Positions 6,044-16,387 of a stretch of DNA of 32,000 nt are shown piece by piece (within the stretch, counting starts at the first letter, position 1; every line of letters starts with the position of its first letter). The position numbers and the translations under genes are program-made. The notes under the pieces were generated by a model, which saw only the letters and a program-made list of their open reading frames with translations, did no database searches and was not told where the DNA came from. The stretch comes from Candidatus Saccharimonadota bacterium (GTDB lineage Bacteria > Patescibacteriota > Gracilibacteria > Absconditabacterales > Absconditicoccaceae): the NCBI GenBank assembly GCA_965231145.1, contig OZ246420.1, forward strand, positions 540,001 through 572,000, given 5' to 3'.

Positions 6044-6100
6044 GAAAACTAAAGACCAAAAACTACAAACAGTTTTAGGTTTGAGTTTTTAGTTTTGGGT
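6044..6100. repeat. Imperfect AAAAC/GTTTT-rich palindrome, related to the copy at 19081-19144
   Basis: Sequence gaaaactaaagaccaaaaactacaaac|agttttaggtttgagtttttagttttgggt. The arms are roughly complementary and share word structure with the post-nusA element. Confidence 0.5.
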
Positions 6101-6178
6101 TGATAAGAGCGTCTTTATATTGATATTTCGCTAAAAATCAATAAAAAGCAGTAAATTTTATGTAAAAATGGCTTTCTT

Positions 6179-7309
6179 ATGCTGTTTCAGATATCATGAA
6201 TTAAAACCGTCCGTGAGACTCCACACAATATATCGTGTCTCATGGATGCGCCAGACGAAGCTTTAGTAAGAGACTTTTGTTGAAAAAACAGTATTGTTAT
6301 TTTTTCTGTTGTCCCATATGTGGGTCAGAAAGAAGCTTTTGGCAAAGTTTTTTTCAAAGTATCTTTCGGCAGTACAACATATGAGCTAGTCACCACTTTC
6401 GACAAGATCAATGAAGCGTATATGTTTTACGCAGAAGTTGGGTTAAGTATAAGCTATATTAATAACTTTGAACATCCGCTGACTGACACCGATGTGACAG
6501 AGGTGATGCAGAAACTCGAAGCAGGATTTTCAGATGCGCAAAAGAAAGTAAAGAAGGTTGAACCAACAGATATTGGCAATGTCGTCCTTGAAGCAGATCC
6601 TGAGTTAGAGAAAATGAAACGCATTGCATGACAAGCGCTGACGGATATTGCGGAGGTGAAGACAAAAGCAGGAAGCAGCTTTGCGATGAGAAAGCTGACA
6701 GACTTGAAATGACTAGAAGATGAACTCAGAAAAGTCAGGATGGGTTCAAATGTTCCAAAGATGCGCTCGCTCGTGAGTGAAAGCTATAGAATTATGGAAG
6801 AGATTGAGATGGAATATCTCAATCAGGCGCAAGCTGCAGAAACAAGTGTCATAGAAAATTCATTTGTGACACACCTGGATCTTGTTCGTGAATATGAAAA
6901 ATATGAAAAAGCCCAGAAAGTAAAATCAGGAAATTTGGAAAAAACTCCTTCGGATATGTATTATATTTTCTTTGGAAAACTCGGGATTTATCAGAGATTT
7001 TTAAGCAAAGATATTTCTACAAAACTTGGAGACCGGAGTAAGATACTCTATAATAGCATCGACCATCTGATCACATTTATCTTCATGTGTATCGTTTGGC
7101 TGACTATTTCATCAGTTTATCAGCACTATATCCTCAGACAAGAAGTATTCTTTTTCGCGTTTGTCGATTTTTGACTTATCGGAATGATCTTGCTCGTTAT
7201 TAATAAACTCAAAAAAGAAAGTATCACACAAATTTTAACCCTCTTTGGTATAGGCACCGTCGTCTATATTATCATAAGATATTTGCTCATCAACAACTTC
7301 GCTTTATAA
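6179..7309 (+). CDS. Hypothetical protein with C-terminal transmembrane helices, rejoined across TGA codons
   Basis: ORFs 6320-6631 and 6740-7174 are in the same frame (offset 420 nt). Read-through of TGA at 6629, 6698 and 7172 continues to TAA at 7307-7309. Hydrophobic C-terminus: ITFIFMCIVWLTISS.., GMILLVI.., LTLFGIGTVVYIII. The start is uncertain (ATG 6179, ATG 6242 or GTG 6320). Confidence 0.55.
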
Positions 7310-7321
7310 ATCTTCTCCTGC

Positions 7322-8662
7322 ATGACTCTTCTTCTTGGCGTTGTATCATTTGCATTCATCTGTTATTTTTTTGGCATCAATGCGTGGCTCGTTGGACTTC
7401 TGCCGCTCCTTTTTTTCATGCTGTTTGTTTACAATGTTGTTTCTCCGAAACATACAACCGGGACCCTCAAACAGTTCTTTAGTTCTCAGAGCTTTCTTAT
7501 CGCGTGGGGATTGATCCTTCTAGGGATCTATGGGATACTTACCTTTACCGGTATTGACTACTATGTGATCGGCATGATCCTCATCATGATTAATATCGCT
7601 GGATGGATCATCTCATTATTATCTCAATACGAAGATGGGAAAAACATCTTTCATATAGGTTATTATATGGCCCTCGGGATATTGCTCTGGAATGTTGCAG
7701 GCACCCAGCCGTGGATGACCACCCTATCGGTCATATTGCTTATGCCTATATTTACCTTTGGTATTTATAGCTTCATTGTCTTCGTACTCAGGATATGGGC
7801 GCCTATAGAAAAAGAGCGAGAGTCTATGACGTTTCTGCTGTTTCACTTAAGTATTATTTCATTTCTTGTTCAATTCTTCTTACATAACTTGTTCGTCGGA
7901 CTCGCACTGTCGCAAATCTATCTTCTCGTACTCTATCTGCTTATATCATTTGTTCACTCGTACGCCGATACTGATTTTGATCTGCCCGCCCCAAATGTAC
8001 GCGATATACTTGCAGGTAAAAAACTACTGGCTCGTAAAAAACCTCTCAAAATAGAAACTCTCCTCTACTTCAACAAGTTTCTCGAAAACATTTCACCTTC
8101 AATCAAAACAGCATTAAGCGGTCTCAATACGATCGTCATTATCACCATTATCTACTCATTTTTTACGGTAGGAAACCCTGAAGTACTTACCATGCAGATT
8201 CTCTACTGGTGTAGTATCTTAGTGTTTTTTGTGAACTTCCTGCTTCTGAAAAAGATTCGCTTTAACTATAAACTCCAGAGATACAGTGTTTTTTTCATCA
8301 TTCATTTCGCAGTGTATTTATGAATAGCTATTGGCGCTGGCTATCAGACACTTACCATGGCTATGTGTGGTATTGGGTGGAGCATTATCAGTTCAGGACT
8401 TATCTTCTATTCTGATTTTGCGATCAGAAACTGAATCCTCCAAAAGGAAGACTATAGTTACTGGATCGGAGCAAATATCCTTAGTATATTTATAAACATC
8501 TATCTCATCATCATACTGAAACTCCCAATCCAGCTTTCTTTCTCTATCATCTTTTTCTACTTGGGTATTGGATTTTTTCTTACGCTACAAACCATTAAAT
8601 TTGTCAAAAATACCTATCCCCCTACTCTTACGGTAGAAGAAATTTTGATGAAAATGGAATAG
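7322..8662 (+). CDS. Polytopic integral membrane protein (446 aa), rejoined across 2 TGA codons
   Basis: The 333-aa ORF is almost entirely hydrophobic helices. The frame continues past TGA 8321-8323 and a second TGA into further helices and ends at TAG 8660-8662. Confidence 0.65.
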
Positions 8663-8666
8663 AGCA

Positions 8667-13563: not shown

Positions 13564-13854
13564 TTATTTATTATTCCAGTCTGCTAAAATATCTTCTGCT
13601 GCTTGTTTATCTTCAACTTGTTGACTCTTTTCTTTTGCTTGAATCATCCCCAAAGTATGAAGAGATTCCTCAAATTCTTTTTTGATCAGTTGAGACTTTG
13701 TCGTTCTTATGACTTCTGCAAAGATATGGCAAAGTTGCTCAATAAGCTTCTTATCTGCCTTTGCATTTTCAACCATGGCAATATAGCCTTCCGCAAGGTC
13801 CCGGTATGGCGATAGTTTCTGTAATATAGAGATAATTGCTTCTTGTGTACTCAT
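13564..13854 (-). CDS. Hypothetical small protein (96 aa) abutting the giant ORF
   Basis: Intact ORF. Its TAA (13564-13566) is separated by one nucleotide from the giant ORF's ATG (13560-13562), an arrangement compatible with translational coupling. Confidence 0.55.
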   Translation of the reverse strand: MSTQEAIISILQKLSPYRDLAEGYIAMVENAKADKKLIEQLCHIFAEVIRTTKSQLIKKEFEESLHTLGMIQAKEKSQQVEDKQAAEDILADWNNK

Positions 13855-14093
13855 CTATTCATCATCAAGCCATATAAAAGCCTTACTCCTCATTATATTG
13901 CCCAAAGGTAGTAAAGAGAAAACTACACTCTATATAAGTCTCTTATGGGCTAAATCATATGGACATGTAAAAGATGTATGTTTAATAATTGACATATTTC
14001 TCTAAATAATCAATATCAGCGTGCTTTAGAGTCTCATTGCAACCAATAGCTATTTTTTTATAACCATAAAAGTATTTATCTCTTATCTTATGT

Positions 14094-16313
14094 ATGCATC
14101 TTTTCAAACGTATCCTCTTATCACTTTTTCCCGATGAGATCGTCAACCAGACGATTAATCCGGCAAGTATGTTTGTGTCATTTATCAATGCTAAGCAATT
14201 TTTTTCTGTGGTGAACAGAAAAATAGTAGAGAACTATAAGCTCAACCTCTTTGACGTATCACTTGATCCTTTTGAGGTAAAGATAGGTTTCGGTGAGACG
14301 CCGTCGATCAAGGTAAAAGATGTCGATTTTTATTATGGCTATGCATCGACTGCCAATTTCAATGGCTATAGATTTTTTTCACCATCAAATATTGCGACAA
14401 GTATCTCACTGATCTCCGCAATCTATACGAAGGATGTATTTACAGATAAGGCTCAACCGCTCTTTCTCTATTTTCTCTTTACTATTTATCTGCTTACTTT
14501 TCTCTTTCAGGCAAGGCTCAAAGTATTTCCCTATCCAGATGACGACAAGGCAAATTATTCATGGTTCATTGATCTGTTTTTCAGTTTCTATAGGGTCGTT
14601 CTGGATCAGGCTGGCATAGAGATCAGCAAGCTTGAAATGAATGCGCTAAAACAAAAACTTATGCACCATCTCCAAGTATTTTTTATGCTTTTTCATATCT
14701 ATAAGAGCGTCAATACCTGCATCCAACCATACGGGGTATCAGAAAAAGAGTTCTATGGCTGGCTTTTTTATGATGAACTAAAGAAAGGTGATTTTCAGCC
14801 TATTGTACAGGATTTTGTCGACAATGCTGGATACTATACTCGCAGCTCTGATTTTGGTACAACGGAAAGGAAAATCATGCATCTCGTCTTGCCAGCAGAT
14901 ATTCTTCTCAGATATCTTTTAGAGACAGATGATATTTTTTTGGTCACAGAGATCTTTGCAACAAGTCTTTATGACAAAGAAAAGGTAGATGAGTATTTGA
15001 CATCTTTTCTCACCTCTTCATGAAAGCTTGGAGATTTTCTTATGTATATTACCGACTATACGCACTTTAAGAAAAACTATTTTTCGGCGCTGAAAAAGTA
15101 TATCATGCGTACGGTAAAAAATGATCCGCAAGATGCAAAAGAGTACGAACATGACATTGACGAATTATTATCAACCATCGGTAGTGATGCACAGAATATC
15201 GACAATATTCAGATGCCTCAGCGCTTGAAAAAAGAAGCAGAGATCATGGAAAAGATGATGAACTTCTATGTCACGTTTATCGGAGGATTTTGGATAGCGA
15301 GAGGAGATACTTTTTATCTCAGACTCTGCAAGAAAGAGCTTATGCAGCTTGTGTCGGAGCCACTTCCATCGGGCATAAAACAAGATGCTCTCTACTACTA
15401 TGGATGACTCCTCTATCACTATAGTAAAAATGTGTTCTACTACAAATATGCCTTTGAAAATATTCGTGCGGGCAAAGACAAATTTCACCTCCCGTTTCGT
15501 GCAACGTTTCGCGAAGTCTACTCTAACATGTTTATCATCAAGCTTTTTGATACGCACGCGCTCGCGACACTATTGCAAGATCTCAATACCAGAGATACCA
15601 AGATTTACGTCAAAAACAAACATATTATCAAGCTCTTCAAAGAGTACTTCTGATCTCACATCTCTACCCTCCTTCATACAAAATGAACCAATACTCTACA
15701 GCAGTTTTACGAACCTCTTAGCATATGCGTACCTGACATACCAGGTTTTCTCGAGAAAATTGTTGCTAGTATTACTCCTGCAGAAAAAGAGTCTCTCACG
15801 GAAAGTCTCTATACGGTTGATACGTGGCTCTTTCAGGAAGTACTCAGACAACTTGGAGAATATAATATCAATCGGCATAGTAAATACAGTGACTATAGCA
15901 TCCTTGGCATCCTTGCCTCGCTAAAAGACACATTGCTCGGATGTATTCTCTATTATACGTACCTTTTACAGCAATCCGAGAAAACAGGCAAATCATACAT
16001 CGCTGAGGATCTTTTTCTCAAAATCTATATCATCGATGTGCTCAACATCACAGAAGAATATTATCCTTTTTTCAGTTCACTTATCATACATCTCGTTGAT
16101 AAACGGCGCCCGCTCCGGGCGCTCCGGATATGATTGGATGATAATAAAGATTATTTCCAGATAGGTTATGAGAACCGGAAACATTTCATCCTTCATAAGA
16201 CATCTGAAGATATTATTACGGGAGTTGTCGGGGAAGATATTATATGGCTGAGAGGATACCTAAAGAATATAAGATACTATAACATCAGATTTGTCATACC
16301 TCATAATTCTTAA
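14094..16313 (+). CDS. Hypothetical protein (739 aa), rejoined across 5 TGA codons
   Basis: ORFs 14094-15023, 15042-15407, 15432-15653 and 15933-16133 all share one frame (offsets 948, 1338 and 1839 nt). Only TGA interrupts the frame, which ends at TAA 16311-16313. No family recognised. Confidence 0.65.
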
Positions 16314-16320
16314 ATAATAA

Positions 16321-16387
16321 AAAGACATAGTAACAGACATAGATATAGGTCATTCTCCTATGTCTATATCTATCCCCTATGTCTTTT
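16321..16387. repeat. GACATAGATATAG-type imperfect palindrome between convergent genes (probable bidirectional terminator)
   Basis: aaagacatag (16321-16330) is perfectly complementary to ctatgtcttt (16378-16387). The inner arms acagacatagatatagg / cctatgtctatatctat pair at 14 of 17 positions. Confidence 0.55.

Follow-up and report, generated by a model that had tools for sequence, protein, structure and literature searches.

In a 32,000-nucleotide stretch of DNA from a Candidatus Saccharimonadota bacterium (family Absconditicoccaceae; assembly GCA_965231145.1, contig OZ246420.1, positions 540,001 to 572,000 of the forward strand), which we refer to as the window, a block of about 10 kb carries five genes, g1 to g5, between a T2SSE and KH domain ATPase (KH-ATPase) on one side and an FKBP isomerase on the other. 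Our analysis suggests, with fair probability, that this block is a patchwork of three evolutionary units, in a genome of Absconditabacteria/Gracilibacteria type that uses code 25: a pair of membrane-protein genes (g1-g2), a core gene of the lineage (g5), and a module made up of a giant gene (g3) and a small partner gene (g4), which would encode a membrane-anchored or exported multi-effector and its partner. The original prediction, drawn from this DNA, had taken the five genes together as a candidate undescribed system resembling an export or immunity-plus-effector locus. Since the genes are scattered independently in relatives, they do not constitute one such locus, and that proposal is refuted. 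What stands of it is the link between the giant and its 96-aa partner, both of them undescribed; g1, g2 and g5 are not part of their system.

Translation table 11 yields only short open reading frames (ORFs) in the window and a coding density of 0.34, which rises to about 1 when TGA is read through. In an alignment of g5 with six homologues, the TGA columns pair with glycine 93 times and with tryptophan 0 times, so TGA encodes glycine (code 25). Once it is read in this way, the coordinates that had been given for the five ORFs are all reproduced: g1 at 6179-7309 (+ strand, 376 aa), g2 at 7322-8662 (+, 446 aa), the giant at 8667-13562 (- strand, 1631 aa with 28 in-frame TGA codons), g4 at 13564-13854 (-, 96 aa) and g5 at 14094-16313 (+, 739 aa). 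We could also identify both of the housekeeping flanks that had been named. Beyond g5 lie the FKBP isomerase, which has an N-terminal membrane anchor (16411-16971, -; FKBP_C E = 3e-19), and g7, a small protein with a transmembrane (TM) and a coiled-coil part (17037-17522, -). The statement that the five proteins belong to no recognised family holds, in that 0 of 5 reach a curated cut-off in Pfam, NCBIfam, PADLOC or PHROGs. This lack of a family is not special to the block, because g7 and three other ORFs of the window (21890-22372, 22488-23018 and 29043-30320) are equally without a Pfam family.

Comparison with related genomes takes the block apart. Four relatives (L003, L004, L010 and L011) have g1 and g2 in one orientation followed by g5, FKBP and g7 in the other, with neither the giant nor g4; in giant-free relatives g2 is 79-83% identical to that of the window. 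The KH-ATPase lies beyond g1 in this layout, but in L003 prophage-like DNA is found there. The full five-gene layout is repeated by L009 alone, an independent assembly with flanks 89-96% identical to those of the window, and for this reason the arrangement is not an assembly artefact. L017-L019 (g2 85% identical) carry a giant of 2134 aa at the same site and have g5 in its ancestral orientation; in L018, g5 and the giant run in the same direction and g2 converges on them. Distant relatives have FKBP-g5 without g1-g4 nearby. Across the code-25 genomes compared, the five genes do not co-occur as a set: the three units are found separately, for example g1-g2-g5 without the giant pair. The simplest history is a single insertion of the giant module followed by an inversion of g5; g4 and the giant would have entered between g5 and g2 in the ancestor of the window, L009 and L017/L018 organisms, and g5 would have been inverted afterwards, in the branch leading to the window and L009.

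That all five genes nevertheless form one undescribed export or immunity-plus-effector system is, in our estimate, extremely improbable. They are adjacent here and in L009, and they combine two membrane proteins with a giant and a small partner, with no known families among them. Against such a system stand the close relatives that have g1-g2-g5-FKBP and lack the giant pair, the distant relatives just mentioned, and the giant/partner pairs found elsewhere. Selection regimes, moreover, differ about tenfold across the block, which is transcribed in three directions and includes a region of divergent promoters and a 4-bp junction between convergent genes. At this junction g2 and the giant face each other with stop codons 4 bp apart (8654-8669) and no hairpin between them, so their transcripts must overlap or end inside the opposite gene. 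Judging by gene orientation, the promoters of g4 and of the inverted g5 presumably both lie in the divergent intergenic region that separates these genes (13855-14093).

Judged from the sequences, g4 and the giant are a conserved, translationally coupled pair and a real inserted module. The g4 stop codon ends 1 nt before the ATG of the giant (TAA-T-ATG). The gene encodes a 96-aa helical protein with an acidic C-terminus, which we could assign to neither a Pfam nor an NCBIfam family, and to none for DNA binding or known antitoxins. Homologues of g4 (95-106 aa, pairwise E = 1e-7 to 1e-13) are located 1-21 nt upstream of giants in L001, L009, L014 and L015, and the giants paired with them are TGA-recoded proteins of 1390-2008 aa. 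The pairs of L001, L014 and L015 sit in different surroundings (SecDF and prepilin peptidase; GroEL/ES and Sua5; RlmH and Obg); L001 yielded no homologue of g1, g2 or g5, and the called neighbours in L014 and L015 do not include one. Members of the giant family were seen at L001, L009, L014, L015 and L017/L018. Giants with different cassettes have partners from one and the same g4 family, which makes g4 unlikely to be an immunity protein specific to a cassette; a role as chaperone or adaptor, acting on a conserved part of the giant, is more likely.

The module is rare. A word-indexed homology search with the whole giant returned one relative (P0001), a scan of genome contigs re-found the same contig only, and a metagenome scan added one short contig (L016). 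The database versions of six relevant entries (the proteins of P0001, P0132, P0133, P0136, L010 and L017) are either W-rich, as expected from code 4, or fragmented, as expected from code 11. As public versions are translated with code 4 or chopped by code 11, recoded proteins of this kind are hidden from word-indexed and family searches.

The N-terminal half of the giant comprises a helical region of about 590 aa. Near its start lies an EF-hand-like loop (aa 6-27, D-R-D-T-N-K-N-I-D-F-Q-E-L; 13482-13547, -), which matches EF-hand_1 at E = 0.066, below threshold; by eye, a D-x-[DN]-x-N...E-[LI] pattern is also seen at the N-termini of the L001 and L015 giants. A Gly/Ala-rich hydrophobic region follows at aa about 590-835 (11058-11795, -), its strongest segment by hydropathy being aa 600-630, and the window, L009 and L001 giants share a hydropathy peak at aa about 583-630. 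We regard aa ~590-835 as a putative membrane anchor or insertion region. Downstream of it comes a variable central cassette (aa 880-1299; 9666-10925, -), which cannot be aligned with the L009 giant. The cassette contains a GNAT-like domain at aa 947-1023 (10494-10724, -), based on matches that are all below threshold: Pfam Acetyltransf_1 at E = 0.007 (17.1 bits against a cut-off of 20.7) and, on the same residues, NCBIfam RimI at E = 0.02 and a PHROG acetyltransferase at E = 0.017. An atypical-kinase-like domain spans aa about 1100-1300. Here a phmmer search of PDB sequences aligned aa 1164-1250 (9813-10073, -) with COQ8B at E = 0.0037; no Pfam kinase family was found on the giant segments. 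The aligned part contains QTD...SNF, which we would take as the catalytic loop, with an IDIEG motif after it. Searches with the whole giant and with segments of it revealed no Ig, PKD, WD40 or repeat domains (Pfam), and no trafficking or pre-toxin domains such as PT-TG, PT-VENN, PT-HINT, RHS or LXG (Pfam and NCBIfam, whole giant plus four segments).

The two closest giants differ most in the cassette. When the window giant is set against that of L009, identity is 77% over aa 1-879 and 83% over aa 1300-1631, and the central 420 aa are unalignable; g4 is 69% identical, as compared to 89-96% for the flanking genes. The ratio of nonsynonymous to synonymous substitution rates (dN/dS) for the same pair of genomes is 0.08-0.19 in the module (g4 0.185) and 0.015-0.04 in KH-ATPase, g1, g2 and g5, values that are rough because dS is saturated. 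The module genes are real and constrained, and they evolve several-fold faster than their neighbours (3-10 times for the giant). In the L018 giant, the C-terminal third is 50% identical to that of the window and the hydrophobic region 23% (window aa 527-834), the latter being the sole part of the N-terminal half that is still alignable; nothing else is recognisable, and the cassette is a third, different one. When examined for the variability expected of toxin modules, the cassette thus proved hypervariable between close relatives on a conserved scaffold.

Further enzyme-like modules were seen in the family. The L009 cassette gives a weak GNAT match, P0001 has an HExxH motif, and the L014 giant has a metallophosphatase-like match. 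In L015, a 631-aa ORF (L015b, 7368-9263), read in another frame, has a 52-nt overlap with the end of the 1390-aa giant and carries an ADP-ribosyltransferase (ART)-like tail: 4 of its 5 top PDB sequence matches are Vis, ExoT and SpvB, and in the alignment with Vis the WRG / TGTT / EAEVLF stretches line up with the toxin. L015b could belong to the giant as its frameshifted continuation, or it could be a toxin gene in its own right. The genes called downstream of the giants in L001 and L015 are housekeeping genes (Peptidase_U32 and Obg), with L015b intervening in L015; an 88-aa ORF follows the giant in L014 only. As for composition, a comparison with the flanks that had been suggested earlier did show a lower GC content at third codon positions (GC3) in the module, but the deviation is modest (0.24-0.32 in the block vs about 0.35-0.45), and TGA is used for glycine there as well. 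The cassette and the C-terminal part have the lowest GC3 of the region (0.24). TGA accounts for 12-34% of the glycine codons across these two parts (34% in the cassette), so any exchange of cassettes is among code-25 genomes.

The C-terminal part of the giant contains two copies of a helical 'AH-G-NYT-K-L-G..G' domain that is new and undescribed and, in the model, confidently folded. Copy 1 covers aa 1338-1398 (9369-9551, -; family profile independent E-value (iE) = 3e-12), and copy 2, at the very C-terminus, covers aa 1515-1631 with its core at aa 1549-1608 (8670-9020, -; iE = 2e-27). A search of the last 117 aa against 1.84 billion representatives, with no word filter and at E<=1e-3, found the domain in 23 representative proteins, mostly giants of 1100-2400 aa, with 1-4 copies and often 2-4. 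The conserved columns are A...AH..G....G...NYT...K...L...L...G..G. AlphaFold2, run on a 30-row alignment, predicts a five-helix domain with a predicted local distance difference test (pLDDT) score of 97.6 and a predicted TM-score (pTM) of 0.89; Foldseek retrieved nothing for this model from PDB or BFVD, and there is no Pfam model. The labelled members are two proteins of a Bacteriovoracales metagenome-assembled genome (MAG) and one of an Elusimicrobia (Elusimicrobiota) MAG. One member alternates the domain with ankyrin-repeat blocks, and several non-recoded members begin, by eye, with signal-peptide-like sequences. In P0001, P0132 and the L018 giant a further C-terminal module comes after the domain; the window giant ends with it.

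In contrast to its earlier label as an orphan, g5 has 335 homologues at E<=0.01, nearly all of them full length and 42-78% identical, from sources labelled SR1, Absconditabacteria and Gracilibacteria. Across the latter two groups the protein is about 733 aa long, with identities of 42-50%. The relatives compared include the complete RAAC1 SR1 genome (L005, CP006913.1) and a Gracilibacteria MAG. FKBP is directly upstream of and co-directional with g5 in L003-L008 and L011, g7 homologues are found upstream of FKBP in L003-L006, and NrdR follows g5 in two distant relatives (L005 and L006). By this comparison g5 is a core gene of the lineage with the ancestral place g7 -> FKBP -> g5. The window and L009 depart from this: g5 is inverted there and converges with FKBP, so that the operon is disrupted. 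We modelled g5 through a 78%-identical homologue (P0002, 80 sequences) and obtained a confident all-alpha structure with a pLDDT of 84 and a pTM of 0.85. The model matched no PDB fold (best E = 0.3, TM <= 0.13), and the g5 family profile matched no PDB sequence. From the strong conservation of g5 and its link to a membrane-anchored FKBP and a small TM/coiled-coil protein, we infer a housekeeping role that is envelope- or division-related. As a separate observation, RAAC1 encodes an unannotated protein of 5926 aa (L005 1-4423) about 5 kb upstream of FKBP-g5, for which we detected no similarity to the window giant.

The g1-g2 pair appears, from its substitution pattern, to be under strong purifying selection: dN/dS between the window and L009 is 0.040 for g1 and 0.015 for g2, low enough that both genes must be functional. 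Hydropathy bears out the topologies that the original prediction had assigned to the two proteins, with a soluble N-terminal part, a helical middle and about three C-terminal hydrophobic helices in g1, and a polytopic membrane protein in g2. Homologues of g1 (60-62% identity in L003, L004 and L017, 89% in L009) are each directly upstream of g2, and g2 has only 9 detectable homologues, all at least 76% identical. The pair is found only in close relatives, adjoining g5. Neither protein has a Pfam, NCBIfam, PADLOC or PHROGs family above threshold or a PDB sequence match. We considered g1-g2 as a platform for the T2SSE-like KH-ATPase and rejected this, because no T2SSF-like match turned up and, in L003, g1 does not have the ATPase as its neighbour. 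The prophage-like stretch that lies beyond g1 in L003 in place of the KH-ATPase (15050-22217; GCA_030429145.1, JAUIDC010000001.1) contains an Acb2/Tad1-hairpin (anti-CBASS-type) gene, a peptide deformylase, a weak match to a terminase small subunit and two large unannotated ORFs.

The palindromes that had been described as bounding the block are both real hairpins. An AT-rich imperfect hairpin (6044-6100) lies in the divergent intergenic region between KH-ATPase and g1, with a folding energy of -19.6 kcal/mol and z = -3.8 (6040-6105). A strong AT-rich hairpin with an A-run and a T-run (16321-16387; -27.8 and -34.4 kcal/mol; z about -7.9 for the folding of 16315-16392) lies between the convergent 3' ends of g5 and FKBP and is probably a bidirectional terminator. 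They do not mark the borders of the block, however, because similar low-complexity hairpins with TAGA/ATAG-type repeats occur at three other intergenic sites of the window (23125-23182, 26945-27039 and 31208-31274). The palindromes at these three sites, and also the one at 16321-16387, are built of TAGAT[AG]TTAGATTATAG-like units; they could represent terminators or, in this genome, a family of REP-like repeats. The flanks of the block contain no long direct or inverted repeats, only short chance repeats, and neither a tRNA nor an Rfam match was found. Likewise, none of the five proteins matches an integrase or transposase family in Pfam, NCBIfam or PHROGs. A genomic island or mobile element was rejected accordingly, for lack of an integrase or transposase, a tRNA target or flanking repeats.

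Other features of the window concern gene content and codon use. Pyruvate kinase (2339-3772), L1 (30413-31090) and g4 have zero TGA codons, and in some neighbours TGA makes up 24-67% of the glycine codons; possibly, highly expressed genes avoid the recoded codon. The stretch of about 900 bp that separates the site-2 protease gene from prfA (19809-20706) holds no ORF of at least 150 aa even with TGA read through; these two genes are only 39 bp apart in L003. A scan for consensus promoters and terminators was uninformative in this AT-rich DNA.

What the g4-giant pair does is best read as a membrane-anchored or exported multi-effector with a dedicated partner, its export, activity and target being deduced from sequence. 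By means of its hydrophobic region, the giant would either sit anchored in the membrane or pass through it for export, and it would present or deliver its enzyme cassette to the host or prey cell of these epibiotic bacteria. Recombination between family members would swap the cassette, much as happens in polymorphic toxins. Translational coupling would supply g4 in stoichiometric amounts, as a chaperone or adaptor. The lifestyle context fits (see also bioRxiv 10.1101/2023.11.21.568195), and in Vampirococcus, a related predator, the membrane proteome is enriched in giants that are thought to act in host recognition and attachment (PMC8080830). Several of our results weigh against this reading. 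With 0 enzymatic domains at a curated threshold in the giant, it rests on below-threshold matches. The window cassette is internal rather than C-terminal, and the giant lacks a signal peptide as well as any known domain for secretion or trafficking. Homology among the N-termini of recoded giants went undetected by BLAST and phmmer beyond close relatives. There is no immunity-like gene 3' of the giant, where the stop codon of the convergent g2 lies 4 bp away on the other strand, and the small ORF upstream of the L018 giant, which we had expected to be a g4 homologue, was not detected by the g4 family profile. Because only three members of the helical-domain family carry a taxon label, the link to predatory bacteria is thin; the roughness of the dN/dS values also counts here.

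A bolder version of this reading, which is possible in our view and doubtful, takes the pair as an undescribed effector-delivery module of UGA-recoded epibiotic or predatory Patescibacteria that needs no known secretion system, and separately takes g5 as a lineage-defining essential protein with a new fold. Delivery would involve a self-inserting hydrophobic translocation region, a dedicated chaperone and the helical domain, with acetyltransferase, kinase, ART, metalloprotease and phosphatase as swappable cassettes. The helical domain would be one that Bacteriovoracales predators also have in their giant exported proteins, and the module would then amount to a 'predation effector scaffold' of convergent or shared kind.

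Alternatively, the giant could be a structural surface or adhesion protein of a fibrous attachment coat, with GNAT and kinase matches that are noise or non-catalytic domains and with g4 as an assembly chaperone. The Vampirococcus giants are interpreted in this way (PMC8080830). The window giant has one membrane-anchor-like segment and every enzyme match is below threshold, and fast divergence is also typical of surface proteins that face hosts and phages. We still consider such a protein unlikely, as three independent libraries put an acetyltransferase on the same 70 residues and the family members differ in enzyme-like modules, not in repeats or adhesin folds; the Ig, PKD, WD40 and repeat domains searched for in Pfam were not found. 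Very unlikely is a toxin-antitoxin (TA)-like or anti-phage module in which an upstream antitoxin neutralises a GNAT or kinase toxin that, under infection or stress, acts on the cell's own translation. TacT and AtaT are GNAT toxins and HipA is a kinase, and the small, translationally coupled upstream gene, the GNAT-like and kinase-like parts, the insertion at varied chromosomal sites and a GC3 below that of the flanks would all suit a system of this type. PADLOC, on the other hand, gave no match for any of the five proteins, g4 lacks a DNA-binding or known antitoxin family, and one g4 family goes with giants of different enzyme modules. Proteins that reach 1400-2100 aa and include a hydrophobic region and ~600 aa of N-terminal sequence resemble no known TA toxin, and the conserved domain also occurs in the proteins that start with signal-peptide-like sequences.

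We attach next to no probability to the module being the remnant of a phage or conjugative element, that is, a 'polyvalent protein' injected with DNA. A multi-enzyme giant polypeptide with a patchy distribution and low GC3 recalls such elements, as does the Gly-rich hydrophobic region, since tape-measure and ejection proteins have hydrophobic Gly-rich regions. Yet the six contexts contain 0 phage or conjugation genes, PHROGs give the weak acetyltransferase match only, a tblastn search of the giant against 50,697 phage records returned no match and BFVD no fold match, and flanking repeats and tRNAs are missing from the block. With TGA as 34% of its glycine codons, the cassette is at home in code-25 genomes. 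The absence of any defence, phage or mobility signature disfavours both the TA-like or defence reading and the mobile remnant.

These results matter in several respects. Absconditabacteria and Gracilibacteria genomes are full of unannotated giant genes, and the module may bear on how such bacteria attach to their hosts and kill or drain them. Our analysis removes a false lead, the five-gene system, and isolates a testable unit, a partner and a giant with a replaceable cassette. The helical domain provides a search handle for such proteins in recoded genomes, Bacteriovoracales and Elusimicrobiota; gene calling with code 11 or code 4 hides or distorts them in public databases. In addition, g5 is flagged as a strongly conserved core protein of the lineage that is tied to the FKBP operon and has no sequence or fold relative.

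Among known systems, FKBP-type peptidyl-prolyl isomerase operons are the ones to which g5 can be compared, as a conserved downstream partner of an anchored FKBP and g7; they differ in that the operon is broken by inversion in the window and that g5 has no detectable relative in sequence or fold. The giant itself recalls the polyvalent proteins of phages and conjugative elements, reportedly defined by Iyer et al. in 2017, in which unrelated enzymatic domains are joined in one very long polypeptide and shuffled between relatives. In contrast to these, every giant locus seen is chromosomal and housekeeping in context, with no phage or conjugation signature.

Closer parallels exist with polymorphic toxins and multidomain effector proteins, which are said to have been set out by Zhang, Aravind and colleagues in 2012. 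As in these, a conserved scaffold carries an enzymatic module that is replaced between close relatives, the modules of the family differ (GNAT/kinase, HExxH, metallophosphatase-like, ART-like), and a small conserved domain precedes the C-terminal extensions of P0001, P0132 and L018 in the manner of a pre-toxin domain. Unlike them, the giant has no known trafficking, repeat or pre-toxin domain, its cassette in the window is internal, and there is no downstream immunity gene; the partner is upstream and constant across cassettes. Type VIIb LXG toxins depend for targeting on one or more helical Lap partners of ~100 aa whose genes lie directly upstream, and the arrangement of g4 and the giant is analogous. 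The giant is, however, 3-4 times longer and has a central hydrophobic region; neither it nor g4 matches LXG, WXG100, DUF3130 or DUF3958, and the window contains no type VII secretion system genes. In lineage and lifestyle the nearest comparison is with the giants of Vampirococcus lugosii and other Absconditabacteria, which are 1392-4163 aa long, predicted to be membrane-located, proposed to act in host recognition and attachment, and described through WD40, TPR, PKD and similar interaction domains (PMC8080830). The window giant comes from the same broad lineage and lifestyle context and differs from them in lacking those domains and in having enzyme-like cassettes, a small partner and an undescribed C-terminal domain.

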